The notes below the pieces were generated by a model. The model was not told the DNA's origin. It searched no databases and was given only the letters and a program-made list of their open reading frames with translations. DNA of 64,000 nt from Escherichia coli. Its GTDB lineage: Bacteria; Pseudomonadota; Gammaproteobacteria; Enterobacterales; Enterobacteriaceae. Of this stretch, positions 9,923 through 62,160 are shown piece by piece (position 1 is the stretch's first letter; each line of letters starts with the position of its first letter). The translations under genes were made by a program, and so were the position numbers. The DNA lies in assembly GCF_044324875.1 (NCBI RefSeq), contig NZ_CP172188.1. One strand, written 5' to 3'.

Positions 9923-9962
9923 TTTATCACATCTTTCGCTCTTGTTCTCATACTAATAAAAT

Positions 9963-12451: not shown

Positions 12452-12528
12452 GATGGTGTAGCTCAGTAGGATAGAGCAGCAGCCTTCTAAGCTGTCGGTC
12501 GGTGGTTCGAATCCACCCACCATCGCCA
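12452..12528 (+). tRNA. tRNA-Arg (anticodon TCT)
   Basis: 77 nt; 7-bp acceptor stem GATGGTG/CACCATC, D-arm GCTC..GAGC, anticodon loop CTTCTAA, T-arm GGTGG TTCGAAT CCACC, encoded CCA. Confidence 0.9.
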
Positions 12529-12530
12529 AT

Positions 12531-12606
12531 GCCGGTTTAGCTCAGTTGGTAGAGCGCCTGCCTTGTAAGCAGGATGTCAGCGGTTCGAGTCCGTTAACCG
12601 GCACCA
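12531..12606 (+). tRNA. tRNA-Thr (anticodon TGT)
   Basis: 76 nt; acceptor GCCGGTT/AACCGGC, anticodon loop CTTGTAA, T-loop TTCGAGT, encoded CCA; P1 also carries a tRNA-Thr. Confidence 0.9.
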
Positions 12607-12608
12607 AC

Positions 12609-12694
12609 ACAACAGGTAAGGGTATTTTGCGACGTCGGAGATCGCCGTGCTTGGCAGAGGGTTCGAATCCCTACGAAGTACCCTTACCGTTGTG
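12609..12694 (+). other. tRNA-like remnant / structured element: 15-16 bp stem enclosing a T-loop-like GGTTCGAATCC
   Basis: ACAACAGGTAAGGGTA ... TACCCTTACCGTTGTG inverted repeat; no canonical D or anticodon arm identifiable. Confidence 0.25.
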
Positions 12695-13071
12695 ATGAAG
12701 TGCAGCTCTTTGAAGCAACCAGAAGATAAGCATCTGGCTTCACAACATAAACCGCAGGAACGACCAATAAACGGTAGTCCGTATGGAGAATACCCCGTTG
12801 AGGAAGAGGCCTGGCCGGAACCGTAACCGGCACTACAACGTTGAGAACACTGACGTAACGGGGTCATATCCCAATCTACGAATAAATGTTGCGTTGCAGC
12901 GTGACAACCAGTGTTCTCAACGTTGTGGTGGATTCGCAGACTGATGCGATAGCTTTCTTGGATGTTAGGGAAATGCGGCCGCAAACCTTCCCTTTCGCGA
13001 GCGGTGATCGTCCGTAGTCCTAATTGGCTGCACCGTATGCCGGAGATTCAGTACCGGCCACCACAACGGCC

Positions 13072-13158
13072 GGAGAGTAGGGAGCATGGTGCTCAAGCGG
13101 TCTTGAAAACCGTCCCATTGCGCAAGCGATGATGGTTCGATTCCATTACTCTCCGCCA
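13072..13158 (+). tRNA. atypical type-II (long variable arm) tRNA-like gene, anticodon possibly TGA (Ser-like); may be a pseudo-tRNA
   Basis: 87 nt; acceptor GGAGAGT/ACTCTCC, anticodon stem-loop GCGGT-CTTGAAA-ACCGT, T-arm GATGG TTCGATT CCATT, discriminator G + CCA; D-arm irregular. Confidence 0.4.
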
Positions 13159-13561
13159 TCGCAACGTTAAGAGTATTTGGCTAATTAAGCGAATGCCGGA
13201 AGCAGAACCGGATCAACAAATGCGTACAGGCGTCATCGCCGCCCAGCCAGCCAAGTGCTCTTACCATTGCGGTGAATGCGGCTAAGCGCACGCGGAACAG
13301 TTAAAACAATCCTGCTTACTAAACATCCCGGCGTTAATTGTTAACTGGTTAACGTCACCTGGAGGCACCAGGCACCGCAATCTAACAGCAATGGCGTTTT
13401 GTCTTAAAAGGTAGCTGCAAGTGATGGATTTTTGGGCCTTTGCCGATAAGAACCCTGGTTGGACATTTTTATTTCTGCTGGTGGTTGCATATGGGATCGA
13501 GCAAGCGGCAAAAGCCTTACGCGGTTCTGGCAAAAAGCGTAAGCGGAATTAACAGTAATCT

Positions 13562-13637
13562 GGCCCTTTAGCTCAGTGGTTAGAGCTGGCGACTCATAAT
13601 CGCACGGTCACCGGTTCAAGTCCGGTAGGGGCCACCA
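13562..13637 (+). tRNA. tRNA with CAT anticodon, most likely tRNA-Ile2 (lysidine type) rather than elongator Met
   Basis: 76 nt; GGCCCTT acceptor, anticodon loop CTCATAA, T-loop TTCAAGT; resembles enterobacterial ileX-type tRNA as I recall it; P1 also encodes a tRNA-Ile. Confidence 0.85.
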
Positions 13638-18453: not shown

Positions 18454-19491
18454 TTACCAGAGTTTAGCGGCGTGCTGTGTTTGGGAGAAAGTGAACCCGT
18501 AACGTTCTTCTATGGTTTTACCGTATCTTTTCCGCGCGTCTGTCAGTTTTATGCCTGTCAGGTCATCTCCGGATGTCATCATTACGTCTAACAACTCCAG
18601 ATCCATTTTATTCAGTCGCGCCATCGCTTCGCGTGCTGTCTGTATTTTACGCTCAATGATATGGCGAATAGCCGGATCGGCTTCCTCAAGCATTTTGGCT
18701 GATTTGTTCTTTAAGCTCTCATTGCGGATGTCGATGTTTCGCAAGATGTATGACTTCGCAACATAGCTTGGTTGGTGTTTCTCCAGATCGCGAACGCGAT
18801 AGAGACTAAAGTCACCAAGCAGGCCGCAAGGTATCGACTCAACCCCAGAATAAATAGTAATGCTGCGACGTTCGCCGACATTATTAACAACGGGCACTGT
18901 GGTGTTCGGAAGTTTTGCGAACACTAAGGCTCCGTGTGCGCCTACCCTGAATCGTGACAGAGCATTGCTGCCTTCAATGTTTGTTGTAAGCACTACATCT
19001 GTGTATCCATCTTTGCGCGCCCGGTAAACTTCCCCTTCAGGTTCTGATGCGAAAAAACGGCGCTCTTCTTCAAGTGCACCAACAATCTGCGAAAATATCT
19101 TGTTTTTCAGGCTTTTCTTTATAATTGCATCATATTTTTTGAGCAGATTTTCGCGCGTAAATGAGCGGGTGGTGGTCGCGCTTTGCACAACAATATGCGT
19201 GCTTTGATTTGTGTCCTCGATAATGAATGGGATCGGAGAATATACAGACTCAACAATGTTAGACGCTTTGCCGTCAGCGTTACGGCACAAGTCAACAAAG
19301 GCTTTCCATTCTGTGAGGCACTTTTCAGCTTCTTCTAGCACATTCTGATCATGTGTTAGTGCAACATGGCGGAATTCCTCGCCGGCATAACTGGTATCAT
19401 GGAAAACAGAGTTTGCGACCACCAGCTCTTTCCACCGTTCAGCGGTTTGCAGGAACCGTTTGTACTCTTTCTCGATCGACTTCTTACTCAT
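18454..19491 (-). CDS. candidate C1-like master repressor (by position and operator cluster; sequence not confirmed)
   Basis: 345 aa; convergent with pacB as c1 is in P1; its upstream region 19504..19700 carries 2-3 operator-like motifs. Confidence 0.35.
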   Translation of the reverse strand: MSKKSIEKEYKRFLQTAERWKELVVANSVFHDTSYAGEEFRHVALTHDQNVLEEAEKCLTEWKAFVDLCRNADGKASNIVESVYSPIPFIIEDTNQSTHIVVQSATTTRSFTRENLLKKYDAIIKKSLKNKIFSQIVGALEEERRFFASEPEGEVYRARKDGYTDVVLTTNIEGSNALSRFRVGAHGALVFAKLPNTTVPVVNNVGERRSITIYSGVESIPCGLLGDFSLYRVRDLEKHQPSYVAKSYILRNIDIRNESLKNKSAKMLEEADPAIRHIIERKIQTAREAMARLNKMDLELLDVMMTSGDDLTGIKLTDARKRYGKTIEERYGFTFSQTQHAAKLW

Positions 19492-19503
19492 TATTCCTAC
19501 TCG

Positions 19504-19520
19504 ATTTAGTTTTCTAACAT
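19504..19520 (-). promoter_or_regulatory. operator-like motif copy (reverse strand ATGTTAGAAAACTAAAT)
   Basis: 13 nt upstream of the candidate repressor start codon. Confidence 0.5.
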
Positions 19521-19691
19521 AAAATTACTATGACAAATCTATGCCGAATAACAGGGTGAGTAAAGGATCAAGATGCATTTTTTTATCATCCAATTTAGAA
19601 AATTCTGCTTAAAAACTGCCAGGCATAACTTAAAGCCCACGCCAGCAATGCATTGCCCATCTGCGCGGAAAGGAAAAAAATTCCTAAGTTT

Positions 19692-19725
19692 CTAACTTTA
19701 GATAATTGGCATTATTTAAAGTTAG
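19692..19725. other. lox-like 34-bp recombination site (13-bp inverted arms, 8-bp spacer)
   Basis: CTAACTTTAGATA-ATTGGCAT-TATTTAAAGTTAG; arms differ at one position; 9 of 13 arm positions shared with loxP ATAACTTCGTATA; 150 bp upstream of the Cre-like gene. Confidence 0.55.
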
Positions 19726-19876
19726 GCTATAATTATGGGTAGATGATCAGTATTGACATCACTGAAAATACGTGCCTCGAATCAAAGGCTTGAATCTTGA
19801 AAATTAACTTATAGCTACCCTGTCATTTTTATATTTTTCGCGTAGCGTCATCTGTATATAGAGGTTAAATAGTTTC

Positions 19877-20905
19877 ATGAGTGAATTAATTATCTCTGGC
19901 AGCTCCGGTGGTTTTCTGCGCAACATTGGCAAAGAGTACCAGGAGGCCGCAGAAAACTTTATGCGGTTCATGAATGACCAGGGGGCTTACGCGCCGAATA
20001 CTTTGCGCGATCTCCGGTTAGTGTTTCACTCCTGGGCGAGATGGTGTCACGCTCGCCAGCTCGCCTGGTTCCCGATCTCACCAGAGATGGCCCGCGAGTA
20101 TTTTCTTCAGCTGCATGATGCTGATCTGGCTTCGACCACCATTGATAAGCACTACGCCATGCTTAACATGCTGCTTTCGCATTGTGGCCTTCCGCCACTT
20201 TCGGATGATAAAAGTGTTTCTCTGGCTATGCGGCGCATCCGGCGTGAAGCGGCAACTGAAAAAGGCGAACGAACAGGCCAGGCTATACCGCTGCGGTGGG
20301 ACGATCTGAAACTGCTCGACGTCCTGTTGTCCAGGTCAGAACGGCTGGTGGACCTGCGCAACCGGGCTTTTCTCTTTGTTGCATACAATACGCTGATGCG
20401 TATGTCGGAAATCTCGCGTATTCGTGTAGGAGATCTGGATCAAACAGGTGACACTGTCACGCTACATATTTCACACACGAAGACAATAACGACCGCCGCC
20501 GGGCTTGATAAGGTGCTTTCCCGTCGCACTACCGCTGTGCTGAATGACTGGCTGGATGTTTCCGGGCTTCGCGAACATCCTGACGCAGTGTTGTTCCCGC
20601 CGATACACCGTAGCAATAAGGCCAGGATCACGACAACGCCCCTTACTGCACCTGCAATGGAGAAAATATTCAGCGACGCCTGGGTGTTGCTGAATAAAAG
20701 AGATGCTACGCCAAACAAAGGAAGATACCGGACGTGGACCGGGCATAGTGCACGCGTCGGGGCCGCTATTGATATGGCTGAAAAGCAGGTGTCTATGGTG
20801 GAGATCATGCAGGAAGGAACCTGGAAGAAACCGGAAACACTTATGCGGTATCTTCGCCGTGGCGGCGTGTCTGTGGGGGCTAATAGCCGCCTGATGGATT
20901 CGTAA
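19877..20905 (+). CDS. cre: Cre-family tyrosine recombinase
   Basis: 342 aa; blocks resembling P1 Cre as recalled: MLNMLLSHCGLPPLSDDKSVSLAMRRIRRE, DLRNRAFLFVAYNTLMRMSEISRIRVGDL, WTGHSARVGAAIDMAEKQVSMVEIMQEGTWKKPETLMRYLR (R-H-R-Y region). Confidence 0.85.
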   Translation: MSELIISGSSGGFLRNIGKEYQEAAENFMRFMNDQGAYAPNTLRDLRLVFHSWARWCHARQLAWFPISPEMAREYFLQLHDADLASTTIDKHYAMLNMLLSHCGLPPLSDDKSVSLAMRRIRREAATEKGERTGQAIPLRWDDLKLLDVLLSRSERLVDLRNRAFLFVAYNTLMRMSEISRIRVGDLDQTGDTVTLHISHTKTITTAAGLDKVLSRRTTAVLNDWLDVSGLREHPDAVLFPPIHRSNKARITTTPLTAPAMEKIFSDAWVLLNKRDATPNKGRYRTWTGHSARVGAAIDMAEKQVSMVEIMQEGTWKKPETLMRYLRRGGVSVGANSRLMDS

Positions 20906-26106: not shown

Positions 26107-26457
26107 ATGCACAATAACGTTCTCAATGTTAGCCGTTCAATTCAGACAATCAGAGACTGCACCAGTGTGGTGGCATCAATCCCATTGCGAAACAGCATAG
26201 ACGAACTGCAAATTCGTGTATTGAATCCGAATCAGGCTAATAAGCAATTGCGCTTTATTTTGACGCTGAAAAGTGAAACAGAGGGGATAAAGCACAGCGT
26301 AAAAGTGTTTTCTGAGGCCATTCTGCTTAATGGGAAGCTCCGGCATCTGGTAAGGCCAGAACGTCAATATCCTGACGTCCTGGCGCGTGAAAAAGACCTT
26401 CTTTCTGAAGTTCAGGATAGGGTGATCGATTTCGTCAAATGCTATCCCCTGCATTGA
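26107..26457 (+). CDS. hypothetical protein
   Basis: 116-aa ORF, ATG start. Confidence 0.4.
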   Translation: MHNNVLNVSRSIQTIRDCTSVVASIPLRNSIDELQIRVLNPNQANKQLRFILTLKSETEGIKHSVKVFSEAILLNGKLRHLVRPERQYPDVLAREKDLLSEVQDRVIDFVKCYPLH

Positions 26458-26726
26458 GGGCAGGTGTTCCCTTCCGCAAAGTAGGGAAAACTGCTATCAA
26501 GTTCATCACACCATCTGCGATGGTCGTAGCACCAAAACGCCTCCCACGGCGCACGGAAATACTTCATCCACCAGGACACCCGATCAGGTATATCTGCTGG
26601 TGGCAGTTCTTCTGGCAATAATTTGCCTGATAATTCCCTTTCCGCCCGCGACAGCATTTTTTTGAGGCTCGCGTTCTCTTTTTCAAGCTCATCTACGCGC
26701 ACCTGTAATTCAGCTTTCGTTGGCAT
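26442..26726 (-). CDS. hypothetical protein (start set at internal Met)
   Basis: ORF 26442..26807; likely start MPTKAELQ...; short coiled-coil then Cys/Trp-rich C-terminus. Confidence 0.35.
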   Translation of the reverse strand: MPTKAELQVRVDELEKENASLKKMLSRAERELSGKLLPEELPPADIPDRVSWWMKYFRAPWEAFWCYDHRRWCDELDSSFPYFAEGNTCPQCRG

Positions 26727-27582
26727 GGTCCGCCTCATGCTTTTCAGCCACCAGCGGCAATAAAGCCCTGGCCATCTTATGAACCAATAATGCATCAATA
26801 ATGCCAAGCGTATGCCCCGGCTTAATGTTTAATGCCGCCTCAAGGTGACACCTTTCCAAGCCACTTTTCTCGGCTTGTTTATGATGATCTGGTGTAATAA
26901 CGTCGCCCAAAACACGGCTAATTCTTTCTCGTAATTGCTGGGTGCCCGCACACTTGATCGCTGTATCGTGGAGACGGTTAACCAGTTCGCGATAAACATG
27001 CGGTTTAATGCGGATACGTTCACCGGTGACGCCCTTTCCTGGCACTGGCACCGAACTATCCGGAATATCCGGATAGTTGCCAGCCAGTCTACGCAAAACA
27101 GCCTTAATTGCATCAATACGGTCATCATCAACTTTTTCTACAATATTGGAATTTAAATACTTCGAAGCCTTGCTATGCCAATCGCTGGTTTTAGGGTCTT
27201 GTCCATCCATCAAACGCCAAGCTTCAGCGATTAACTCATAGCCAGTAACAGTGGCTTCCTGCGCATCACCAATCAGTTGTGTGATCTCTCTTTCAAGCAT
27301 GCTTAGAGCGTTAGGCATTGGTTTTTCTTCCGGTACTACTGGAACGGGGGGAGCGGCGTAGACCTCAATAATTCCATTATCAATAGGCCATTCTCCATCC
27401 TTGAGGTAGTCACTTGTGCCGTCAACTTGCTGTTCTGCAATGTGGAATGCACCTATTGGTTTTGCTTCCAGCGATGCCAGAGCAATTTCATAAGCACGGC
27501 GCTCAATATTGTCTCTCACATCCAGGCTACCTATGCGCTCTTTGATTTCTTTAATCAGTTCTTTGTCGGTTAAAGTGGTCAT
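26710..27582 (-). CDS. hypothetical protein; shares a module with the IS-disrupted gene at 36077..36796
   Basis: 290 aa; segment LHDTAIKCAGTQQLRERISRVL matches LRDVAIECHGTDQLRARLSNTL in 36077..36796. Confidence 0.5.
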   Translation of the reverse strand: MTTLTDKELIKEIKERIGSLDVRDNIERRAYEIALASLEAKPIGAFHIAEQQVDGTSDYLKDGEWPIDNGIIEVYAAPPVPVVPEEKPMPNALSMLEREITQLIGDAQEATVTGYELIAEAWRLMDGQDPKTSDWHSKASKYLNSNIVEKVDDDRIDAIKAVLRRLAGNYPDIPDSSVPVPGKGVTGERIRIKPHVYRELVNRLHDTAIKCAGTQQLRERISRVLGDVITPDHHKQAEKSGLERCHLEAALNIKPGHTLGIIDALLVHKMARALLPLVAEKHEADHANES

Positions 27583-27896
27583 TTGTTAATCCTCAAAACT
27601 TTATGCCCGGGCGCAAAAGCACGCGTTTTGTCTTTGCTTATTCGCCAGCCATCCTTGCGCGCCTCTTTTGCACAGCCAGCCCATGACGTACCGATATACT
27701 CACCGAAGTCTGGTGATTGATATTTACCATTTGTACACTGGCGACAATCACAGTAGAGATGCATGGTGTAACTTGCGGCAATAGCCATATCAGGCTCCTT
27801 TAGTGCGCAAGTGGTTTTTCCAGCGGTTTTGCGCCGCGCTGCGCTTATCTTTGATTCCCTCTCTGGCAATTCCAGAAAATGAAAACAACACCACAC
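27579..27896 (-). CDS. hypothetical Cys-rich protein
   Basis: 105 aa; YCDCRQC and WAGC motifs. Confidence 0.4.
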   Translation of the reverse strand: MWCCFHFLELPERESKISAARRKTAGKTTCALKEPDMAIAASYTMHLYCDCRQCTNGKYQSPDFGEYIGTSWAGCAKEARKDGWRISKDKTRAFAPGHKVLRINK

Positions 27897-28326
27897 AGCG
27901 ATTGCTAACTCTCAACCACTGGCTGGGATAGCAAAGTCTGTATACACGGGAGATAAGCATCTTAGCTTTACGGTTTTTCATCGCACTGCGTACCCCTTCT
28001 CTCGTCTGTTACGCGATGTGGTGGGTTTATAGTTAAATGCGAATACCACCCTACCAAACATGCCGATCACCGCCCGTTTGTGATTGCTGATTGGTAGCTT
28101 CTCGTACCCCGTCGAACGCGATAAAAGAAGTAATTTTGCTTTACGGTTTTTCATCGTTTTGCTCTCCTGCGTCTCTTTGCTGCTCGTCGTGCCGCTGCAA
28201 TACCGGTATGGCGGCGCTTTGGTGCCGGGATGATGTTGTCAGCCATCAGTACATGCGGCTTTGCAATTAGCGCAGAAGCCCAAAAACGAGTCGGGTATGG
28301 TAATAAACCGATAAACGCGACACGCA

Positions 28327-29037
28327 TTACGCACCTCCTTTGATGCGAATGCCTGCGGCGCGTGGCACATTAACTTCCACGATGCGCACTGTTGGTTTGT
28401 ACATCTCAATCGCTGTCAGCCAGTCAGCTCCTGTCATGCGCTTTTCCGCATCGCCATTAGTCCACTTAACCGGTACACCAATAGACTTCATCGCGATTTC
28501 TATTTCCCCGGCGATGGCGCTTTTTCCGCAACCAGTAAAACCAGATACAACGACAAGAACTTCGCCTTTGGCTGGTTTTATTTCCCGTGCTTCCTGCCCT
28601 GATTTGCGCAGCAAAACAGCGTACTTTAATGCGTCCTGGGCTTTCTGAAATTTCAGTGCATAGTCAGTGGCGATTTTCTCCAGTTCAGCAATACGCTTAC
28701 TCCCATCCGAGATAACACCTTCGTAATACTCACGCTGCTCGTTGAGTTTTGATTTTGCCAACTCCAGTTGTTTTGTTAGTTCCGCAATACGGCAAACATC
28801 GTTGATACGCGTTTCCTCTAATGCGTTGATCTCATCCAGCAGCGCCAGCACGGTAGCCGGATTGGCTGCGGCGATGAATTCAGCATCACGAGATTCGTTT
28901 TCACTGAACACCATAGCTATTTGCTCATGGTTTATGCCGTCAGTGGAGTAAATCTCATCGTCGAATTCAACAGCCCACTTACCTTTCGTAGCCTTCTCTG
29001 CCGCCTCACGCAGTGCCTGATAGTCAATCTTGCTCAC
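28327..29037 (-). CDS. Ea22/Ead-like family protein (paralog 1)
   Basis: 236 aa; N-terminus MSKIDYQALREAAEKATKGKW typical of lambdoid Ea22-like proteins. Confidence 0.6.
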   Translation of the reverse strand: MSKIDYQALREAAEKATKGKWAVEFDDEIYSTDGINHEQIAMVFSENESRDAEFIAAANPATVLALLDEINALEETRINDVCRIAELTKQLELAKSKLNEQREYYEGVISDGSKRIAELEKIATDYALKFQKAQDALKYAVLLRKSGQEAREIKPAKGEVLVVVSGFTGCGKSAIAGEIEIAMKSIGVPVKWTNGDAEKRMTGADWLTAIEMYKPTVRIVEVNVPRAAGIRIKGGA

Positions 29038-29714
29038 TGGTTGCCTCCTTTGCGAAGCTGGGCAGCAAAGTCAACTAACCACTCAGTCATTTCAACCTTC
29101 CCTACCAGGTCTGAACCAGGGTGCATACAGCAATCACTCTGCACCGCTTTGAAATCCTTATACTCATATTCTTGGGCCACCAGATTTTTTGCAGCTTCTA
29201 TAGCAGCATCCACCCCCTGCGCCCGGACTTCAGCCAGGAAAGCATCAGTGGTTGGCGTTTCAGGTATCTGTCTCCTCATCCGTTCTATTGCATGATTGAA
29301 CCCGAAGTCTTCCGCGAGAGATACGTCATCCATATTGTCATTGTCATCCTCAATATCCCGTGATTCTGGAATTGCAGACTTTATTCCCGCATTCTCCGCT
29401 GCCAGCGCCGCGCACTTGGCTTCAAGAGCGGCAACCACTTCCTGATGGTCTTTGTACTTAACGTATGAGCCGGAGATGTCATCACCTTCGGTGTTTAGCC
29501 ATGCGTCATTGCAATTCACTGCGTAGGTTCTGATGCTGATGCTCTCCCGCCCCTGACAGACGCCAGGCCAGTCAATAAAGTATCCGCAATGCCTACCCTC
29601 AGACGTGCGCGCAGGATAAATGCCGTTATGACCCGGCAAAATATATGCTACCCATTCATCTTGCGTTGCCTGTTCCGCCGCCTCGCGCAGTTCTTGATAG
29701 TTAATTTTGCTCAC
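29034..29714 (-). CDS. Ea22/Ead-like family protein (paralog 2, mosaic)
   Basis: 226 aa; N-terminus MSKINYQELREAAEQATQDEW; C-terminal module [17 protein letters not shown]...QLRKGGNQ shared with 32990..33757. Confidence 0.6.
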   Translation of the reverse strand: MSKINYQELREAAEQATQDEWVAYILPGHNGIYPARTSEGRHCGYFIDWPGVCQGRESISIRTYAVNCNDAWLNTEGDDISGSYVKYKDHQEVVAALEAKCAALAAENAGIKSAIPESRDIEDDNDNMDDVSLAEDFGFNHAIERMRRQIPETPTTDAFLAEVRAQGVDAAIEAAKNLVAQEYEYKDFKAVQSDCCMHPGSDLVGKVEMTEWLVDFAAQLRKGGNQ

Positions 29715-30402
29715 TGGTTGCCCCCTGAATACGCTTAAACTCGATTACCCACACCCAAGGATTAGCGTTCCAACTATCTTCGCCATAAATTGATTTCCAT
29801 AGGCTACGGAAACTTGGGTAATGCTTATCGCCAATGAGGGTCGATTCTGTTGGTGCGCCCTCAGCCCTTGCATCGCATTCGCTGATATCGTTCAACCGCT
29901 CAACGCGCACGTTGGTAATTTCCAGAAGAATGCGCGATGCCCAGCGCGGCATGTGAATTGATGGACACCACCCGCCATCAAATTTTTCATTCACAGTGTG
30001 AGGTTTCCAGTCGGCATCATCGGGTATCGACCACAAGCCGTAATCACCCGGCTTTTGCTCACAACTGGCCCGATAAATCCTTGCTGCGTTCTTCTCATCG
30101 CCACGACAAAGGTTGTCGTTCCAGTCCACACTGCAACCATCCTCATTGCCTAATATCGCCCACGCCTCACGGACCCATATGCGATCACCAACGTTACCGA
30201 ACGGGCATAAACCATGTTCAGGCGCATCCATAACGTGGGTATAGACACCATTGCGTTTCTTTGTCGGTTTACGGATAACCAGGCAGTTATCGGCCCTGAC
30301 ATTTTTTACAGGTCGGCGAGTCTGCGTCTTCCTTCCTTCGAGGATGGCCCTGACCATCTCATCGTTAAAAATCATCCCGCATTCTTTCATTTTTTGATCC
30401 AC
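29701..30402 (-). CDS. hypothetical phage protein, possibly ASCH-domain-like
   Basis: N-terminal MIFNDEMVRAILEGRKTQTRRP resembles ASCH-type proteins; from memory only. Confidence 0.35.
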   Translation of the reverse strand: MDQKMKECGMIFNDEMVRAILEGRKTQTRRPVKNVRADNCLVIRKPTKKRNGVYTHVMDAPEHGLCPFGNVGDRIWVREAWAILGNEDGCSVDWNDNLCRGDEKNAARIYRASCEQKPGDYGLWSIPDDADWKPHTVNEKFDGGWCPSIHMPRWASRILLEITNVRVERLNDISECDARAEGAPTESTLIGDKHYPSFRSLWKSIYGEDSWNANPWVWVIEFKRIQGATSEQN

Positions 30403-30406
30403 CTCA

Positions 30407-31402
30407 TCAGTTATTGAAAGTGATCACTCCGCGCTCGATGGCGAAGTCAAAAAGCTGGTTAGCGGCTACGTAAAGGCGTATGCCATGTGCTTTTTCCCAT
30501 GCCCGGACATCGTTTTCTGCGCTTCTGGCGCAGTCATCGCAAAGAGGAACAGCCCAGCGGTCGTGTTCGTTTAACGAGCGGGCGCGGTATATGAACGGGT
30601 GGTTAACTTTGCCACCGCATCCGATGCACGGACGAGAAACCACAAACCGGAGATAAGCCGGGCTTTTACCGAGGACCGCTTTTGGTCGGCGCATATAAAG
30701 CAGGCCGGAATCCTCATCTACAGACAGGTTGACGATCTGCTCTGCGGTTATGTCCACCAGCTCGCGGGTACTGTGCTCCCAGGTGATATCTGATTCTTTC
30801 AGCGTACCGGTAGGGATTTCAGTTTTTGGCTGACAAAATGCAATGCGACCGGCTTCATCTGGCAGCTCATCTTTCAGATTCCGGCGAATGGCCCAAAAAG
30901 TGAGTTCAACCATGCTCAGATCGCGTTCTGGCGGTAGTTTTAACTCGCTCGCAGCCCAGTTCATAACCCAGTTGGCACGATTCAGGGATAACTGGTCGTC
31001 CAGCTTGCTGTACCCCTTCATCATGTATTCCGCATCATGCTTCCAGCACAGGCGAACGGCAGAGCCGTTATAGAAATGAGTGGTTAGCTGGTGGCTGCAA
31101 TCGCGCTTATCGTGCGCCTGGCAATCGTGGATATTGGAACTTACCCAATGAACAAGCGAATCTTCACCGCCCAACGCGTTAAATACGCGCTCGCTTTGAA
31201 AAAACGGTTTCAGAGACTGGTTGGCAACCAGCGAATAATTCAGATCCACTACGCCATCTGGCGTGTTTTCAGCCTGTTCACGCGGAAGTGGGGAGATAAT
31301 GAAACGGCGACCTACGCCAATGTAGTTACTGGTGGGCTTGTCTACCGGAAAGACAGCCACACCAGCTCCGTTTACGAAATGAGGTGTGATTATTGCACTC
31401 AT
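30407..31402 (-). CDS. hypothetical protein with C-terminal Cys-cluster (zinc-binding) motif, DUF968-like
   Basis: 331 aa; C-terminal RPCIGCGGK ... VPLCDDCAR. Confidence 0.45.
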   Translation of the reverse strand: MSAIITPHFVNGAGVAVFPVDKPTSNYIGVGRRFIISPLPREQAENTPDGVVDLNYSLVANQSLKPFFQSERVFNALGGEDSLVHWVSSNIHDCQAHDKRDCSHQLTTHFYNGSAVRLCWKHDAEYMMKGYSKLDDQLSLNRANWVMNWAASELKLPPERDLSMVELTFWAIRRNLKDELPDEAGRIAFCQPKTEIPTGTLKESDITWEHSTRELVDITAEQIVNLSVDEDSGLLYMRRPKAVLGKSPAYLRFVVSRPCIGCGGKVNHPFIYRARSLNEHDRWAVPLCDDCARSAENDVRAWEKAHGIRLYVAANQLFDFAIERGVITFNN

Positions 31403-31443
31403 AATGTATACCGACTCTGTTTTGTTCCGAGCGGTAAAATAAT

Positions 31444-31477
31444 ATGTTAGAAAACTAAAATCAATGTTCTAACACAT
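31444..31477. promoter_or_regulatory. paired (inverted) operator-like motifs
   Basis: ATGTTAGAAAACTAAAATCAATGTTCTAACACAT: TGTTAGAA ... TTCTAACA inverted halves; upstream of the 30407..31402 gene. Confidence 0.5.
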
Positions 31478-31499
31478 TTTGAGTGCGTAAATGATTTGA

Positions 31500-32192
31500 T
31501 CAGACTTTAAGCTGTCCTCCCTTCACCTGCATTAGCGTCAGATTTCCGCAAAAAACCGCGCCCGTGTCTATGTAGTGCTGATTCCAGTATGCTTTTGGTC
31601 TTCGTACCGGTGTGTGCCCAAAGATAAAGCGATCTGCGCCTGTGATTTCTCCACCAATGCCATCTATCGAATCACCGACGCGACTGCGCGACCAGACAAC
31701 ATCAAAAAGCGACACATCCTTACCGAACTGGTACTCTCCACCTGGATAGTCGGCATGGGCTATAACGATAGTTTCATGCCCGGTGTTCAGCTCAATGATA
31801 TAGGGCAGACGCTTTACCAGCTCCACCAGCGCCCTGGCTAATATTTCCTGATCAGTGTCCAGCATGAAGAACCATTGACCGCCATTCATTAGCCAGTTAT
31901 TCACATTGCCTGCGGGACTTAACGCATCGATCATTAATCGCTCGTGGTTTCCCATAACCGACCGAAACCAGGGCATCTGCAATAGCTCCAGGCATTCAAC
32001 ATTTTCGGCGCCGCGATCGATAAGGTCGCCAACCGATATCAGTAAATCCTGTGTCGGGTCAAAATCCACACGATGGAGTTCATTCATAAGTAGGGTGTAG
32101 CAACCGTGCAAATCACCAATAACCCATATGTTTCTGTAGCCTGAACCATCAATACGGCTATATAAATTCACTTCATGCAGAGCCTGGATCAT
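31500..32192 (-). CDS. Ser/Thr protein phosphatase (lambda PPase / calcineurin-like metallophosphatase)
   Basis: Motifs GDLHG, GDLIDRG, GNHE; ATG overlaps upstream stop (ATGA). Confidence 0.85.
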
Positions 32193-32500
32193 GCGGCAAC
32201 CTTCTCCCGCAGCCAGATACAAACTGGACCATCTTCAGTGTCATGAATAGAGCCAACAAACCAGCCTTCACCCTCTGGTCGCTCCGGTTCCCAGGCGGCA
32301 ATATCGGGACCAGCTGCGTCCAGATCAAAATCATCTTCATCCATACTGCGAATAGTCCACTGAAGATTATTTTCCTTCATCCAGGCGTCAAATTCCTCAG
32401 TGGATATATATTCACGACCTGCGCAAAACTTTTCATACTCCGGATGTGTCCAGCAGCCATATTCATCACGTTCTACCGGCATTTCTTTAATGATGCTCAC
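32189..32500 (-). CDS. hypothetical protein
   Basis: 103-aa ORF in the same minus-strand gene array. Confidence 0.45.
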
Positions 32501-32721
32501 TCTTCATCCTCCAAGTCGGCAACGGCATCCATCACATCAGAACCGCGAATAACCTCAAAAGCACGGCAGGCCATTTCAAACACCTGTTGTTCTTGCGGAT
32601 GCGGTGACTCCCAATACTTAAAACCAGGTCGATGCTCGTAACCCATCATGGAATAAAAATCGCCAGCAAGTTCAATCGCGGCATCAACAAGTTCGCGATT
32701 TGTCATCGTCTGTTCTGTCAT
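32497..32721 (-). CDS. hypothetical protein
   Basis: 74-aa ORF, overlapping stop/start with neighbours. Confidence 0.4.
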   Translation of the reverse strand: MTEQTMTNRELVDAAIELAGDFYSMMGYEHRPGFKYWESPHPQEQQVFEMACRAFEVIRGSDVMDAVADLEDEE

Positions 32722-32993
32722 TTGGTTTTCTCCTGTCTGAACATCACTATCATCAGGTCGCCTTTTGTCGCTATCCTCGCTGTTGTGCCTGGTTCAATGC
32801 GGCTAAGTTCAAATGCGTCATAGAACGCCTCCAACGCTTTCTGGCGTTTTTCCTGTTTGCGGCGCTTTCCCCACTGCTTTAGAAAAACAGAGGCCGCCCA
32901 CTTCCCCGCACTGAACATGATGTAAAACCAACCGAGAAGTGCCAGACCGGTATTTAGGAGCGTATCGATCGTTATTGTCGTGTCGATATTCAC
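32718..32993 (-). CDS. hypothetical small membrane protein
   Basis: 91 aa; hydrophobic N-terminal segment GLALLGWFYIMFSAGKWAA. Confidence 0.4.
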   Translation of the reverse strand: MNIDTTITIDTLLNTGLALLGWFYIMFSAGKWAASVFLKQWGKRRKQEKRQKALEAFYDAFELSRIEPGTTARIATKGDLMIVMFRQEKTK

Positions 32994-33757
32994 TGGTTGC
33001 CTCCTTTGCGAAGCTGGTCGGCGAACAAACGTACACCAGACGCTTCACTGCGTAGAAACTTAACGGCATAATCAAAACCACCTCGTTCTGCGTCGTCTGC
33101 TGCGTTGTCGAGGTTATCTGCGTACATCTCTACCCCCTGCGCACGCACTTCAGCCAGGAAAGCGTCGGTGGCTGGGGTTTCAACACGGATGCTGTCGCGC
33201 AAGATGAAAAATGCATTGAGCATTCCTGTCTCTGGCACTTCATCCTGATGCTTCTCATACGCATCAAGAGCCTTCATCATCTCAGCTCCGAATGGTTGAG
33301 GGTGCACAGACTTCAGCTCCGCATTCTCCGCCGCCAGCACCACGCGTTCGCTCTCCAGTTCTGCAATGCGCTGTTTTGCGGCATCAAGTTCAATCGATAA
33401 TTTTTCCAACTGCTCTTTATGCTTCTTGTATTCCTGATATGCGTGCCAAGACTGACCTTTGCGCACACTATCCGTGATATCAGTAATCTGTTCTGGTGTT
33501 AGCGTGGTCAGTGGCTGTGCTGGGAAAATCAGCACTTTCCCGGAATCCCAATCAAAACCAGCGTGAATTGACTGAACCTCAACTGAAGGTGTTGAACCAA
33601 TGCTGCCAGGCGAATGAACAACGATCGTTACATCCATATCGCGACGATGGCTGTGGTTGTTGGACAAAATACGATTCACCAACTCAGAAAATTTGGAAAA
33701 TTTCATGCTGATTCCCTTTGCTCTTCCTGGATAATGTTGTTGCAATCTTTCACGCAC
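32990..33757 (-). CDS. Ea22-like family protein (paralog 3, mosaic)
   Basis: C-terminal [17 protein letters not shown] ... QLRKGGNQ shared with 29034..29714; coiled-coil middle. Confidence 0.55.
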
Positions 33758-34065
33758 TCGTTGCAGATGAAAACGTTGTCCCCGGCAATTAACTTTTTAA
33801 CGGTGTGCTGGGATTTGTTGCAGAAGCTGCAATAAAGCGTTGGACTGGCTGATACGGATGGTGCGCCAGATGTCAGCCGCGCGATGTCGTTCTTGCGACG
33901 CAATATCACACGGCTGCACTCGACCAGCATCTCCGGGGATATCTCCTCCTCCGTAGCGAGCGTTTCTAATCGTTCGAGTATGTGGAAGGCTTTTTCCTGG
34001 GTAATCCTGGGTAATTCAGCGTTACGCTCTGCCAGTTGTGCGGGCGTTAAACCTTCAGACTTCAT
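33703..34065 (-). CDS. protein with ClpX-type N-terminal zinc-binding-domain homology (stand-alone ZBD)
   Basis: 120 aa; C-terminal [39 protein letters not shown] parallels ClpX [39 protein letters not shown]. Confidence 0.6.
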
Positions 34066-34372
34066 ACACTCTCCTTTCGAAATAAACGTACTGATTAATC
34101 ATGCCCAGGGGCATTTCGAGTTTTTCCGCGATCTCACGGCGGGGAACACCACACTGATGAAGCTGCCGTGCCAGTTCTATATCGCTCTGCCGGTATTTGG
34201 CTGACGGATGAAAGTCACCTTTCAGAATCATTCTGATCCCCAGTTCCCGCGCTTTAGTCCTGACAGCATCTCCGGTACGCCCGATCAGCCTCCCTATACT
34301 CTCGACTGTCATAGTTCCGGCACACTGGCGGAGTATCATGATTTCTGCCCTTCTCCATCCCCGCCATCTCAC
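34055..34372 (-). CDS. putative HTH DNA-binding protein
   Basis: 105 aa; two HTH-like segments ([24 protein letters not shown]; [22 protein letters not shown]). Confidence 0.4.
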
Positions 34373-34519
34373 GCTGACATCCTCTTAGACATAAACTCAA
34401 CAAAACGAACTGCATCTTCAGAAACAACGCCGCATGACTTCAGCGAAAAACCGCCGAGAACCCTCGCCCAATGCGGGCGGGGAGGAAAGGCGGAAAAGCC
34501 CGAAGGGCTTTAAAAAAAA

Positions 34520-34945
34520 TCATTCCGGCGTTGACTGGTTTTGAACGTAAGCCCTGAGTGTTTCAATCGTTGCTCCTCCGGTACTACATGCAAAGTAGGC
34601 TCTCGACCAAAGCAAGCCTGTTTTGCTCTGTGTTCGTAAATGTGTGTTTTGTTGACGTAGCAGACGTGACGATACTGATTTCAAATTATTCACCATTACG
34701 CTGACTGCCAGCTTTGGCGGATAGGCAACCAGTAGATGTACATGATCTGCTTCTCCATCCATTTCAAGAATTTCGCATTCAAGTTTTGCAGCAGCGGAAC
34801 AAAAAGCTTCCCGTAGTTGCTCTATCATGCAGCCGTCAAAAAGTTTTCTGCGGTATTTTGTAGTGAAAATTAAATGCACAACGAGCTTACTCACGCTGTG
34901 ACGTTTCCGAAGGAATCCCTCAAGGGATTCATGCTGTTCGCTCAA
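34520..34945 (-). CDS. tnpA: IS200/IS605 transposase TnpA (HUH Y1)
   Basis: 141 aa; HUH motif DHVHLLV and catalytic Tyr region SRAYFACSTGG. Confidence 0.9.
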   Translation of the reverse strand: MSEQHESLEGFLRKRHSVSKLVVHLIFTTKYRRKLFDGCMIEQLREAFCSAAAKLECEILEMDGEADHVHLLVAYPPKLAVSVMVNNLKSVSSRLLRQQNTHLRTQSKTGLLWSRAYFACSTGGATIETLRAYVQNQSTPE

Positions 34946-35001
34946 TTGAAAAAACGCCTCAATTTGTTAAAATGATTGAATAATATCAATGAGCGCTGAG
35001 T

Positions 35002-36180
35002 ATGTTAAGAGCGACAAAAGTACGCATATATCCCACTACTGAACAGGCTGAGTATCTCAATGCCCAGTTCGGTGCGGTACGTTTTGCGTACAATAAAGCT
35101 CTTCACATCAAAAAACATGCTTACCAGCGATACGGGGTGAATTTAAGTCCGCGCAAAGATTTAAAGCCGTTGCTGTCTATAGCGAAGAAGTCCCGTAAGT
35201 ATGCCTGGCTCAAAGAGTTTGATTCAATGGCATTGCAACAGGCAGTAATTAATCTTGATGCGGCATTTTCCAACTTTTTTAATCCGAAGCTGAAAGCACG
35301 GTTCCCGACGTTTAAACGTAAACACGGGAGACAATCGAGCTATCACTGCACCGGAATCAAGGTGCTGGATGATGCCATTAAGATCCCTAAACTGAATCTG
35401 CCGATAAAGGCGCGTATACACCGTGTAATTACGGGAAAAGTAACGAGCATAACAATTACTCGCAATGCCGCTGGGGAATATCACGCATCCATCCTTTGTG
35501 ATGACGGTATTCCCGCGCCAGAGAAACCCACGTATCTGGAAGAAGAAAAGATTACTGGTGTGGACATGGGATTAACAGATTATGCCATCAAATCGGATGG
35601 TAATAAGGTTGGTAATCCTCGTCATCTCATCAATGCCAGTCGTAATCTGCGACGCAAACAAAAAGCGTTATCCCGCAAGCAAAAGGGAAGCGCGAACCGT
35701 AAAAAGGCCAGAATCCGTCTGGCAGCGTTACACGAACGGGTGGCTAATGCCCGTGCTGATTTTCAACACAAGCTCTCTCGTGCAATTGTTGACGAAAACC
35801 AAGCGGTAATTGTCGAGACGCTGAAAACAGCCAACATGATGAAAAACCACAATCTGGCAAGAGCGATAGGTGATGCAGGCTGGCATAGCTTCATCACAAA
35901 GCTGGAGTACAAGGCAGCGGAAAAAGGCGTTCACCTGGTAAAACTCGACCAGTGGTTTGCCAGTTCGAAAACGTGCCATTGTTGTGGTTACAAAATGCCG
36001 GAAATGCCGCTTCATAAACGCATCTGGCGATGCCCTGAATGTGGAGCAGAGCACGACCGCGATATCAATGCGGCGCTCAATATCCGGCAAAAAGGAATAC
36101 TGGAACTAAAGGCGGCGGGACTCGTCGTTTCTGTCCATGGAGGCCAGCGTAAATCCGTCGAACAGACGGTAGCGGCCTGA
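35002..36180 (+). CDS. tnpB: TnpB (OrfB; RNA-guided RuvC-like endonuclease)
   Basis: 392 aa; N-terminal MLRATKVRIYPTTEQAEYLNAQFGAVRFAYNKAL; C-terminal zinc finger CHCCGYK...CPECG and RuvC-III-like DRDINAALNI. Confidence 0.9.
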   Translation: MLRATKVRIYPTTEQAEYLNAQFGAVRFAYNKALHIKKHAYQRYGVNLSPRKDLKPLLSIAKKSRKYAWLKEFDSMALQQAVINLDAAFSNFFNPKLKARFPTFKRKHGRQSSYHCTGIKVLDDAIKIPKLNLPIKARIHRVITGKVTSITITRNAAGEYHASILCDDGIPAPEKPTYLEEEKITGVDMGLTDYAIKSDGNKVGNPRHLINASRNLRRKQKALSRKQKGSANRKKARIRLAALHERVANARADFQHKLSRAIVDENQAVIVETLKTANMMKNHNLARAIGDAGWHSFITKLEYKAAEKGVHLVKLDQWFASSKTCHCCGYKMPEMPLHKRIWRCPECGAEHDRDINAALNIRQKGILELKAAGLVVSVHGGQRKSVEQTVAA

Positions 36181-36796
36181 GAAGTGGGAAGCCTCGCCCG
36201 ACAGGGCGGGGAGCAGTCACATAATTCATTGCGTCATTAGGTAGCGGATTAGTTGGTTCGGCATTTGCCAGGGATTGAGATAAACGCGTGATTAATTTGA
36301 CCATTCTCCGCTGCCGGAGGTTGTATCCTTCAGCTAAAGACAGGTAACTGGAAAGGGTATTGCTTAAGCGGGCGCGAAGCTGATCCGTGCCGTGACATTC
36401 AATAGCAACATCACGTAACGCATCGACCAGTTCACGGTAAAGATGCGCTGCCATTCTGCAATCTGTGTCAGATGGTGCTTCATAAATTACCGTCAACCCC
36501 AGTTTTTCAGCCAGAGCGTGTTCTGCACGTGCTCCTGCGGACACATCCCATCCCTTAAGCAGATAGATCGCATCAGCAGAACGCACCATTGCCAGGCAAA
36601 TATCCATGTATTCACTCTGGCAAAGGCCACCAGGTAACACAGCTGGATTCAGAACGATATGCCCTTCAGACATCAGCTCGCTCGCTTTCGCATTAAACGC
36701 CGCACGGTTGTAGTCTGGATAACCAGTCATCGGCCCCGCGATGTAAATTTTCAAAACACGTTTCACCATCAAAATTTCCCCAAAATCGTGACGCAA
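36077..36796 (-). pseudogene. DUF4406 / nucleoside 2-deoxyribosyltransferase-like gene with 3' end replaced by IS sequence
   Basis: N-terminal KIYIAGPMTGYPDYN Rossmann-like motif; the last ~50 codons (below ~36226) read into the IS right end. Confidence 0.45.
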
Positions 36797-36961
36797 AACA
36801 TAAGCACTGCGAAAAGCTCAATACCAAGCTCAAGTAGCGCCAACGCCCCGAAAAACAACACATAGAACAGGCCAATCTCATTCACAGATGGCTGGTGGAT
36901 CGCACTTAAAGCTATAAGCATCATGTCCTCCAAACAGTTATCAGGAATGATATTAATGTTT

Positions 36962-36992
36962 TGTGTTAGAAAATCAATTTTGAATATCTAAC
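36962..36992. promoter_or_regulatory. operator-like motif pair upstream of ref
   Basis: TGTGTTAGAAAATCAATTTTG plus inverted ATATCTAAC; 50-80 nt upstream of ref. Confidence 0.5.
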
Positions 36993-37041
36993 TGTTTTGA
37001 TCAATCATAGAAAAATAGCTGAAAAGTAAGAGGCAGCCATC

Positions 37042-37620
37042 ATGCAGAAACAGAGCTATTGGGAGAAACAGAGACAAAAAGCCATGCAAAAATTGGCTGA
37101 CCCAGCCTGGCGAGAGGAACAAAGGGCAAAGCGCCTTCAACAAGCTCAACGCCAGCAGCAGCGAGCGAGAGAAAAAGCCGCATCGCCTGAATATCGGCAA
37201 AAGAAAATTGAAAAAGCAAAGCAATATGAACAGCGGAGAAAAGATAAAGCTGTATCCGCTCCGCCCAAAAAAACACGCACGTCACGCGGCCTGAAGGGCA
37301 GATCACTCACAGCCGATGAACGCCGGATACAGACCGCTATCGGTACTCTCCCCTGCATTGCCTGCCATATTCACGGGCAACATAGCCCAGTGGTATCCCT
37401 GCACCATATCTTCGGGAGAACGGCAGAGAACGCACATAAATATGTCCTCCCTTTGTGTAAATGGCACCACCAGTACGCAGCGCCAGCCGAGGTCCGAGAA
37501 CAATATCCCTGGCTGGTCCCTGTTCATGCTGATGGAAAAATAGGCGGAAAAGCAGATTTCATACGGCACAATGCCGATGAAATGGCGTTGTATCAGATGG
37601 CGATTGAATTAATAAATTAG
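37042..37620 (+). CDS. ref: Ref recombination-enhancement HNH-family endonuclease
   Basis: 192 aa; basic N-terminus then SRGLKGRSLTADERRIQTAIGTLPCIACHIHG ... CKWHHQYAAPAEVREQYPWLVPVHADG, matching P1 Ref as I recall it. Confidence 0.85.
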   Translation: MQKQSYWEKQRQKAMQKLADPAWREEQRAKRLQQAQRQQQRAREKAASPEYRQKKIEKAKQYEQRRKDKAVSAPPKKTRTSRGLKGRSLTADERRIQTAIGTLPCIACHIHGQHSPVVSLHHIFGRTAENAHKYVLPLCKWHHQYAAPAEVREQYPWLVPVHADGKIGGKADFIRHNADEMALYQMAIELIN

Positions 37621-38139: not shown

Positions 38140-38430
38140 GGCATTATCGTGGGGTATATTTCTACGGCACCTTAGAAAAACGGGTGCCGGGATTGGAACC
38201 CCGGATAATGCAAAAGGCGACACAGACGCCGAAAGCGTCTTTTCTTGTGTCATGCCATCGCACAGCCATACGTAGCGTTTAGCTCAGAGATCAATGGTAG
38301 TGCTGGCTGGGCTGCCGAAAGGCAGGCCGGTTCCCTTTTGCGCCGGTAGTTCCAACCCAGTCAGTGCTACCGCCATTGAGATTGGAACCTCACGCGGTAG
38401 CTCCTTAAATTAGCAAAAGGAGGCTGCCAA
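38140..38430 (+). ncRNA. candidate c4-like antisense RNA / leader region of immunity module A
   Basis: Structured leader upstream of the icd-like gene: direct repeats GATTGGAACC (38192, 38383) and a partly complementary GTTCCAACC (38346); hairpin GACGCCGAAAGCGTC + T-run near 38223. Confidence 0.3.
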
Positions 38431-61899: not shown

Positions 61900-62160
61900 T
61901 TCAGGCTTATATTCACGCCGTTGCAGCAAATTCTGCGACCGGGTTTAGCAGCCTGAATGTACATGCGGACAACCGCAGATATCCGATATTGCGGTATTTT
62001 TGTGTCCGTAAAACCATGTTACGCCCGAATTATGGTGGGGCGTGATGGGGAGGCTTCGGCCTGCTGGTTTCATGTACGCCAGTCTGCTAACCCCGTCACG
62101 TCCTGCCACCCGTTTAGCAGCGGGTAGCAGGTTGTTAAACCTGTACATGAGGCCGTAACT
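61900..62160 (+). ncRNA. candidate c4-like antisense RNA locus of immunity module B
   Basis: Paired elements a=TTTAGCAG and b=GTACATG occur at 61945/61958 and again at 62112/62141; complements (CATGTAC at 62066, CTGCTAA at 62085) lie between in reversed order. Confidence 0.35.

Follow-up and report, generated by a model that had tools for sequence, protein, structure and literature searches.

Comparison with known phage-plasmids and lambdoid prophages

Gene exchange with phages and plasmids has been reported for P1-like phage-plasmids and involves about 30% of their genes (PMC10879196). Several of the genes concerned here have dispensable homologs: P1 forms plaques without ppp, pmgT, pmgU or pdcB, and these genes and ea22 of lambda are all non-essential by CRISPR interference (PMC10695390). 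In lambda and Shiga toxin (Stx) phages, Ea22 favours lysogeny (PMC7093339), and the mosaic build of this protein has already been published (PMC10834534, PMC7093339). Here we consider a 64-kb window of the Escherichia coli contig NZ_CP172188.1 (assembly GCF_044324875.1; all positions are those of this window) and, within it, a minus-strand block at 28327–33757 that a first-pass annotation had described as lambdoid accessory content in a P1-like backbone. We favour a different reading, to which we assign a probability of roughly 0.8: that the block belongs to a system of leftward, non-essential accessory operons in a D6-like plasmid prophage, a system composed of two interleaved layers and shaped by recombination. 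The system would span from the promoter divergent from ref, near 36.96 kb, to the hot–humD–phd–doc cluster near 26 kb. One layer would consist of residents of the P1/D6 group (ppp, the DUF968/pdcB-like gene, pmgT and pmgU), which follow the P1 gene order and occur mainly on plasmids. The other would consist of exchangeable cassettes (Ea22-type genes, DUF4752, small open reading frames (ORFs) and a ClpX zinc-finger gene) drawn from a pool of enterobacterial temperate phages.

The identity of the element was checked on 25-kb flanks to either side of the block. D6 covers 78% of the left flank (1–25000) at 92.1% nucleotide identity and 78% of the right flank (39001–64000) at 95.7%, while P1 covers merely 5% of the left flank and the P1-type phages P7 and RCS47 match only ~1% of the right. 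The D6 immC genes lpa, pacAB, c1 and dre were all found in the window, with c1 at 18454–19491 (minus strand) and dre, which encodes a Cre-like recombinase, at 19877–20905 (plus strand) in a D6-type immC region (18454–20905), and the local map around the block is collinear with D6. The P1 C1 operator consensus ATTGCTCTAATAAATTT is absent, with no match in the 64 kb when up to three mismatches were allowed. The element is a D6-like plasmid prophage, belonging to the D6 branch of the P1-like phage-plasmids and not to Punavirus P1 proper, and the backbone formerly called P1-like is a D6-like one (92–96% nucleotide identity).

Central genes with homologs in P1

The ORFs listed for the minus-strand array were all recovered at their positions, and three of the central ones have homologs in P1. 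The phosphatase (ORF 31500–32222, minus strand, with a likely start at 32192 giving 230 aa) was rightly recognised as a lambda-type Ser/Thr phosphatase of the PPP family, as it matches Metallophos (PF00149, E = 7.5e-16), contains the motifs GDLHG, GDLIDRG and GNHE in its translation and shares 65% amino-acid identity with lambda NinI. It is, however, nearer to P1 Ppp (85% identity), and lambda ninI is located in the nin (early-right) region and not in the early-left region, which removes the phosphatase from the early-left content with which it had been grouped.

The 233-aa ORF labelled ASCH-like (29701–30402, minus strand) is 69% identical to residues 1–232 of P1 PmgT (E = 7e-112 for an alignment over residues 1–217), and the 77 additional C-terminal residues of P1 PmgT come from a different frame of the pmgU region. 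P1 PmgQ, also 233 aa long, was considered as its homolog and showed no similarity. The ASCH assignment itself is weak, though convergent: the match to Pfam ASCH (PF04266) falls below the cut-off (E = 0.097), that to ASC-1 in the PDB is weak (E = 0.0087), the top four Foldseek matches of a low-confidence AlphaFold2 model (predicted local distance difference test, pLDDT, 58.7) are ASCH/PUA-like (E 0.02–0.2), and near-identical homologs carry the name "ASCH domain-containing protein" from the Prokaryotic Genome Annotation Pipeline (PGAP). The Cys-cluster protein (30407–31402, minus strand; 331 aa) contains DUF968 (PF06147, E = 3.6e-45) and is a homolog of P1 PdcB, with which it aligns end to end at 38% amino-acid identity (341 columns, E = 1e-75). 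It falls in phrog_96, labelled "HNH endonuclease". The view that the content of the block is typical of lambdoid early-left regions and not of P1 is therefore only partly sustained: the Ea22-type cassettes and several small ORFs do belong to the lambdoid gene pool, while the phosphatase, ASCH-like and Cys-cluster genes have P1 homologs in ppp, pmgT and pdcB.

The same block in D6 and related plasmids

D6 (NC_050154 / MF356679) covers 53% of the block at 96.5% identity and at the same position. Its orf88–orf104, between ref and hot/humD/phd-doc, lie on the same strand of the same backbone and include the DUF968–ppp–orf96–orf95–DUF4752 core of the window, a central 2.6 kb at 96.7% identity with Ea22-like genes on its flanks. 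Beyond the phosphatase, this core comprises three small minus-strand ORFs linked by ATGA/GTGA overlaps, encoding a 103-aa protein (32189–32500), a 74-aa protein (32497–32721) and a DUF4752 protein (32718–32993; Pfam E = 1.7e-41); their D6 counterparts are orf96, orf95 and orf94, and the stretch as a whole is 96.7% identical in nucleotide sequence. D6 also has Ea22-like genes, ClpX zinc-finger, helix-turn-helix (HTH), DUF4406 and PmgU-like ORFs and candidate operator sites, and the notes of the D6 record itself tie these ORFs to relatives in phiV10, mEp213, ES18 and 933W. In contrast to the window, D6 has no PmgT homolog at this slot, nor two of the three genes that had been called Ea22-like, namely Ea22-2 (29034–29714, minus strand) and the third (ORF 32990–33757, minus strand), and its counterpart of the first, Ea22-1 (28327–29037, minus strand), has a different N-terminal half. 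It carries an extra Ea22-like gene and orf91 between the ClpX zinc-finger and HTH ORFs, and lacks the IS200/IS605 insertion found in the window.

Hundreds of D6-related plasmids carry the block in the same place; for D6 and the ~90-kb plasmids, coverage ranges from 53 to 79% at 96–98% identity. Plasmids of ~90 kb from E. coli and Salmonella cover up to 79% of it at 97%, again at the same position, and typically have 2–4 "ead/Ea22-like" genes each in the region, in varying slots. One plasmid has the entire pmgT-to-DUF4752 segment at 98.4% identity, and one has the segment of the third Ea22-like gene, the ClpX zinc finger and the HTH protein at 98%. An assembly artefact was ruled out because many independent plasmids share the organisation. 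The window's exact gene combination was found in no record. Among phages and plasmids the best match to the 5.4-kb block reaches 79% coverage and none reaches 80%, a threshold that no record attains for the Ea22-1/2 pair and no complete E. coli genome attains for a 10.4-kb query (26400–36800) that includes the insertion sequence (IS). The region is a standing hypervariable accessory region of D6-like phage-plasmids, here in a new combination of alleles, and its presence at the same position in D6 and the ~90-kb plasmids is largely the refuting observation that the first-pass annotation had itself named.

Relation to P1 and Punavirus variants

From ppp through pmgT, pmgU, hot, humD and phd to doc, the genes follow the order of P1 (NC_005856), which has homologs of Ppp, PmgT, PmgU and PdcB and repressor operators at the heads of the units. 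In P1, however, ppp and pmgT are separated by pmgQ, pmgR, pmgS and pap, pdcB comes after doc, and the syntenic region lacks any Ea22-like gene. Reference P1 goes straight from the equivalent of position 29753 to that of 27085 (P1 NC_005856 4231–4237), and is therefore without Ea22-2, Ea22-1, the small ORFs and the N-terminal part of the PmgU-like gene. This last gene (26710–27582, minus strand) encodes 290 aa in the window, of which the C-terminal third corresponds to P1 PmgU (111 aa) at 93% identity; in P1, pmgT runs out of frame into pmgU. D6, a Punavirus variant and the window have a fuller PmgU-like protein of 224–360 aa, with N-terminal parts that differ among the three. As the divergence of these versions starts at "AGNYPDIPD", this point represents a recurrent module boundary, and the pmgT/pmgU overlap of P1 is best read as the product of a deletion or recombination there, with loss of the cassette slot.

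Punavirus variants (MH422554, MH445380/1 and vB_EcoM-813R1) have a true P1-like backbone, in which pmgQ, pmgR, pmgS and pap are kept, and fill the pmgT–pmgU slot with other cassettes, such as EaA and a RecT fragment. In MH422554 and MH445380/1, Ea22-like genes adjoin a pmgT-like gene, and the slot of MH422554 holds Ea22-like DNA with 98% nucleotide identity to part of Ea22-2 (29387–29706) along with the EaA gene and RecT fragment.

Counts across 5426 complete E. coli genomes separate the central genes from the cassettes. The central pmgT–DUF968–ppp–DUF4752 segment was found at 1127 plasmid versus 233 chromosomal places, whereas pieces of the Ea22-1/2 segment, present in 2677 of the genomes and mostly at 90–99% nucleotide identity, were found at 4606 chromosomal versus 498 plasmid places. 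Pieces of the latter segment also occur in Stx, phiV10, CUS-3 and HK phages. Given these opposite distributions, inter-family mosaicism is limited to the Ea22-type cassettes and does not extend to the block as a whole, for which it had been proposed.

Had a lambdoid early-left block that is foreign to the P1 family entered a P1-type backbone in one recent event, this would account for the abundance of Ea22-type modules in lambdoid and Stx prophages, the resemblance of Ea22-1 to lambda Ea22 and the lack of an Ea22-like gene in the syntenic region of reference P1. We consider such an event very unlikely, as the central genes are P1-family residents carried mainly on plasmids (Ppp 85%, PmgT 69% and PdcB 38% identity), D6 and hundreds of related plasmids have the block in the same place, and Punavirus genomes have Ea22-like and EaA genes in the pmgT–pmgU slot. 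The lambda phosphatase, moreover, belongs to the nin and not the early-left region, and the block does not behave as one unit, its parts differing in both distribution and best matches.

Ea22-like proteins and their shared modules

Ea22-1 (236 aa) and Ea22-2 (226 aa) are members of the Ead/Ea22 family, with PF13935 scores of 89.6 bits (E = 3.5e-25) and 96.0 bits (E = 3.8e-27), respectively, against a gathering score of 27 bits. The third protein (238 aa from the ATG at 33706), which falls in phrog_368 and phrog_6026, has no PF13935 match at E ≤ 0.01 and does not significantly resemble lambda Ea22. The coiled coil and the QLRKGGNQ C-terminal module are present without the PF13935 N-terminal region, and this module, common with Ea22-2, is the only link of the protein to the family; a full-length nucleotide match (98%) in plasmid NZ_CP034790 is annotated "hypothetical protein". 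The description of the three as Ea22/Ead-like proteins thus applies to the first two and not to the third.

The sharing of modules in different combinations, as originally noticed, is real and beyond chance. The first 21 residues of Ea22-1 and Ea22-2 are 71% identical (BLASTP E = 2e-7), corresponding to a 76-nt repeat in the DNA (82%), while Ea22-2 and the third protein have the coiled-coil and C-terminal part in common (E = 4e-15), for which the DNA shows one island of 54 nt (87%) and another of 36 nt (92%). Pairwise comparison of Ea22-1 with the third protein found nothing significant in common. Ea22-2 is therefore chimeric, with the N-terminal module of Ea22 and the ...QLRKGGNQ module at its C-terminus, and DNA sharing among the three genes is confined to islands of 76, 60, 54 and 36 nt.

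The ea22 gene of the lambda exo–xis region and its Stx variants encode the same arrangement of N-terminal segment, coiled coil and swappable C-terminal domain, and are likewise early, non-essential genes. Ea22-1 has the architecture described in PMC10834534, in which a central coiled coil separates a short N-terminal segment from a variable C-terminal domain. It aligns with residues 1–101 of lambda Ea22 (43% over 127 aa, covering the N-terminus and coiled coil) and then diverges. The C-terminal domains in the window differ from the solved one of lambda, and the proteins end in KGGNQ or KGGA, in contrast to the K/RGE ending of lambda and Stx Ea22. The genes also lie behind P1-type operator-like sites in a plasmid prophage, whereas those of lambda lie behind pL. 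The C-terminal domain of Ea22-1 (about 85 aa, 28327–28650) contains a Walker-A-like GFTGCGKS motif, is nearly invariant over about 970 protein clusters and is at least 97% identical in proteins with unrelated N-terminal halves. Searches of PDB and Pfam with this domain returned weak matches only (APS kinase, FtsY and MTH538, all with E above 0.02), and its AlphaFold model (pLDDT 44) was too poor for use. Among phages, P1-like ones hold the homologs that best match Ea22-2 over its full length (63%), and each of the three Ea22-like genes has a 96–99% identical counterpart elsewhere. By analogy with the described systems, we infer that the products may act as non-essential modulators of host physiology or of the lysis–lysogeny decision.

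Cassette junctions

The joins between cassettes are marked by a 15-nt motif, GGRGGCAACCAGTGA, which occurs three times on the minus strand (29034–29048, 29711–29725 and 32990–33004; 0.00 matches expected), at the Ea22-2/Ea22-1, PmgT/Ea22-2 and third-Ea22/DUF4752 boundaries. The motif combines a Shine-Dalgarno sequence with a GTG start that overlaps a TGA stop, and at the two junctions where an Ea22-like reading frame stops, the C-terminal GGNQ is encoded within it as well. An 18-mer version was found in at least 120 IMG/VR prophage contigs, and a sample of at least 122 IMG/VR instances was picked by this 18-nt motif. Among the matches listed, it is preceded by at least 25 different C-termini, all ...RKGGNQ, and precedes about ten different genes, about two thirds of which start with an Ea22 N-terminus. 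Across 70 unique junctions among these matches, pairwise identity is 0.62–0.98 from −30 to +45 of the start codon and about 0.3–0.37 elsewhere, and both conserved ends in one protein, as in Ea22-2, are rare (6/183).

Under the operon-system reading, the mosaic would have been built by homologous recombination at conserved junction islands of about 36–90 nt, comprising the ...QLRKGGNQ codons and stop, the Shine-Dalgarno sequence, the GTG start and the codons for MSKI[DN]YQ.LREAAE. The partners would be the plasmid prophage and co-resident integrated prophages, and the three Ea22-like genes would have been acquired or reassorted one by one, with no duplication in place. The conserved ...KGGNQ end may reflect the embedded ribosome-binding site, and the K/RGE ending noted in the Ea22 literature perhaps does likewise. 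A more specific and decidedly tentative proposal is that the cassettes are bounded by an island of ~75–90 nt, made up of the same elements with the GTG start over the stop, which would couple translation and at the same time offer Red/RecET-type recombinases a homology arm of sufficient length. Integrated lambdoid prophages and P1/D6 phage-plasmids could in this way continually trade variable effector domains, with the conserved terminal tripeptides of the Ea22 literature as by-products of the ribosome-binding site.

The same pattern could be taken as a sign of a dedicated diversity system, in which the effector domains of the Ea22 cassettes are swapped (possibly for counter-defence or host takeover) and the junction is itself selected as a recombination signal. 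Such a system would fit the sharp island of conservation between unalignable flanks in the 70 unique junctions among the matches listed, the use of one junction by many upstream and downstream partners, the near-invariant C-terminal domains on unrelated N-terminal halves, and the 2–4 cassettes per plasmid in variable slots. We nevertheless regard it as quite unlikely, given that the conserved ends encode N- and C-terminal helices together with a ribosome-binding site, for which ordinary selection suffices, that the sample is biased by the search motif and that mosaicism of this kind is long known from the early regions of temperate phages. That the Ea22-like genes are true paralogs, duplicated in place and diverged within the lineage, is very unlikely despite their common operon and orientation and their common N- or C-terminal modules and junction sequence, as similarity is found only in islands of 36–76 nt between unrelated gene bodies, 96–99% identical copies occur in other replicons in different combinations, and family members hold Ea22-like genes in different slots.

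Candidate C1 operators and operon organisation

Neighbouring genes in the array overlap by 1–14 nt almost throughout, with a sole intergenic gap of 97 nt (31403–31499), and the overlaps of stops and starts suggest translational coupling. The phosphatase ATG at 32192 and the ATG of the third Ea22-like protein at 33706 each overlap the upstream stop as ATGA, and these are likely to be the true starts.

As no P1 C1 operator was present in the window, the search was turned to a D6-type motif. The motif TTTTRTGTTAGAAAAY is common to the operon head and the sequence upstream of c1. It occurs 17 times in the window versus 2.7 expected, a count of 17 was reached by 0/100 shuffles, and the operator-like sites extend to ATGTTAGAAAACTAAWT. 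They are located at 9959, 11210, 11366, 15078, 19509, 31440, 36959, 37620, 41384, 52752/52776, 61817/61841 and 63756, and include sites next to c1, upstream of ref, where P1 also has a C1 operator (Oref), and next to the second of two C4 antisense-RNA loci. A further site lies 74–89 nt upstream of lpa, compared with 71–87 nt for Olpa in P1. Positioned as are Oc1, Olpa, Oref and the immI operator of P1, these sites are candidate C1 operators. An inverted repeat at the operon head, CAAACAGTTA, was rejected, as it is not enriched (4 matches versus 4.3 expected).

Two of the sites concern the block directly. A candidate bivalent D6-type C1 operator (GTTAGAA..N13..TTCTAAC, 31440–31478) lies in the 31403–31499 gap and overlaps a promoter-like sequence on the minus strand (TTAGAA-17-TAACAT). 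A second candidate bivalent operator with an inverted partner (36959–36997) coincides with a divergent promoter region (TTAGAT-17-TAACAC) between the leftward operon and ref (37042–37620, plus strand). Both are kept at equivalent places in D6. The array may thus form two leftward units, each with a promoter overlapped by an inverted pair of C1-operator-like sites and repressed by C1, much like the units behind Oppp, OpmgR and OpmgT of P1. If C1-controlled as in that analogy, the units would be shut off in the lysogen and switched on early upon induction or infection.

Upstream of the HTH gene the operon is interrupted by an IS200/IS605-family element (34444–36221; Y1_Tnp E = 1.2e-38, OrfB_IS605/TnpB domains and subterminal hairpins), with tnpA, encoding a Y1 transposase, at 34520–34945 (minus strand) and tnpB (OrfB_IS605/TnpB) at 35002–36180 (plus strand). 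It sits in the 3′ end of a DUF4406 gene, at a site across which D6 and pWP8-S17-ESBL-05_2 are contiguous, and parts the HTH-to-ppp genes from the operon-head promoter. A promoter-like site of tnpA (35008–34980) points into these genes.

Several of these observations weigh against the operon system as proposed. The junction sample was chosen by its own motif, so that the frequencies drawn from it are biased, and illegitimate recombination followed by selection could equally give sharp module boundaries. The operators remain candidates, called from enrichment and from positional analogy with P1, and a generic sigma-70 scan of 26–38.5 kb did not list the proposed promoters and returned fewer promoter-like sites than shuffled sequence; the sigma-70 and terminator scan of the same interval found no promoter-like site in the block except at the IS. 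In addition, the IS may uncouple the upstream unit from its promoter, which makes the present regulation of the genes from the third Ea22-like gene through ppp uncertain.

Flanking genes and other features of the element

The ClpX zinc-binding-domain homolog of the first-pass annotation was borne out (zf-C4_ClpX, PF06689, E = 1.3e-17 at residues 78–114), although its ORF (33703–34065, minus strand; 120 aa) lies mostly beyond the end of the block. It is a stand-alone zinc-finger protein without an AAA+ module, hence not a ClpX unfoldase, and may interfere with the recognition of substrates or adaptors by ClpX. Its best matches are nearly all in D6-like plasmids, and the annotation of its D6 homolog, orf93, as "carboxylate--amine ligase" looks a misnomer. 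It adjoins a putative DNA-binding (HTH) protein of 105 aa (34055–34372, minus strand), a homolog of D6 orf90 with a weak Sigma70_r4_2 match (E = 0.005), whose homologs are labelled "DNA-binding protein" by PGAP. A search of NCBIfam gave names only for the phosphatase and the ClpX zinc finger.

The operon head (36222–36925, minus strand) comprises a small hydrophobic ORF (about 36796–36925) and the IS-truncated DUF4406 gene, which starts at 36769 (PF14359, E = 2.1e-33); the D6 homologs of these genes are orf88 and orf89. At the other end, the operon continues downstream of Ea22-1 with further small minus-strand ORFs (27579–28327) and the PmgU-like gene. Two of these small ORFs, at 27978–28154 and 27790–27981, are adjacent and both begin MKNRKAK, with a 29-nt repeat common to their 5′ ends (27955–27983 and 28128–28156), representing another small case of a conserved gene head on different bodies.

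Elsewhere in the window, a rox-site region sits between c1 and dre, and a cluster of four tRNA genes (12452–13637; Arg-TCT, Thr-TGT, Ser-TGA and Met-CAT, by ARAGORN) lies in a segment that matches the tRNA region of P1 and P7 at ~92% identity. Two C4 antisense-RNA loci were found, one at 38290–38377 with an isrK match at 38167–38245, and a second at 62028–62113 with a match to the c4-a1b1 target at 61907–61959, which suggests that the element has two regions of immI type.

Implications for P1-like phage-plasmids

The region is real but ordinary, a variable accessory-gene region of the kind usual for D6-type plasmid prophages. The main consequence is a correction: half of the genes taken as lambdoid are residents of the P1 family, and the region is not evidence of an unusual inter-family transfer into P1. 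It provides instead a small, concrete case of the gene exchange reported for P1-like phage-plasmids (PMC10879196). For annotation, the junction motif could be useful as a mark of cassette joins, as could the recognition that the pmgT/pmgU overlap of P1 looks to have arisen by deletion or recombination at a module boundary that recurs. The candidate D6-type C1 operator motif would, in turn, allow the C1 regulon to be mapped in D6-like plasmids.

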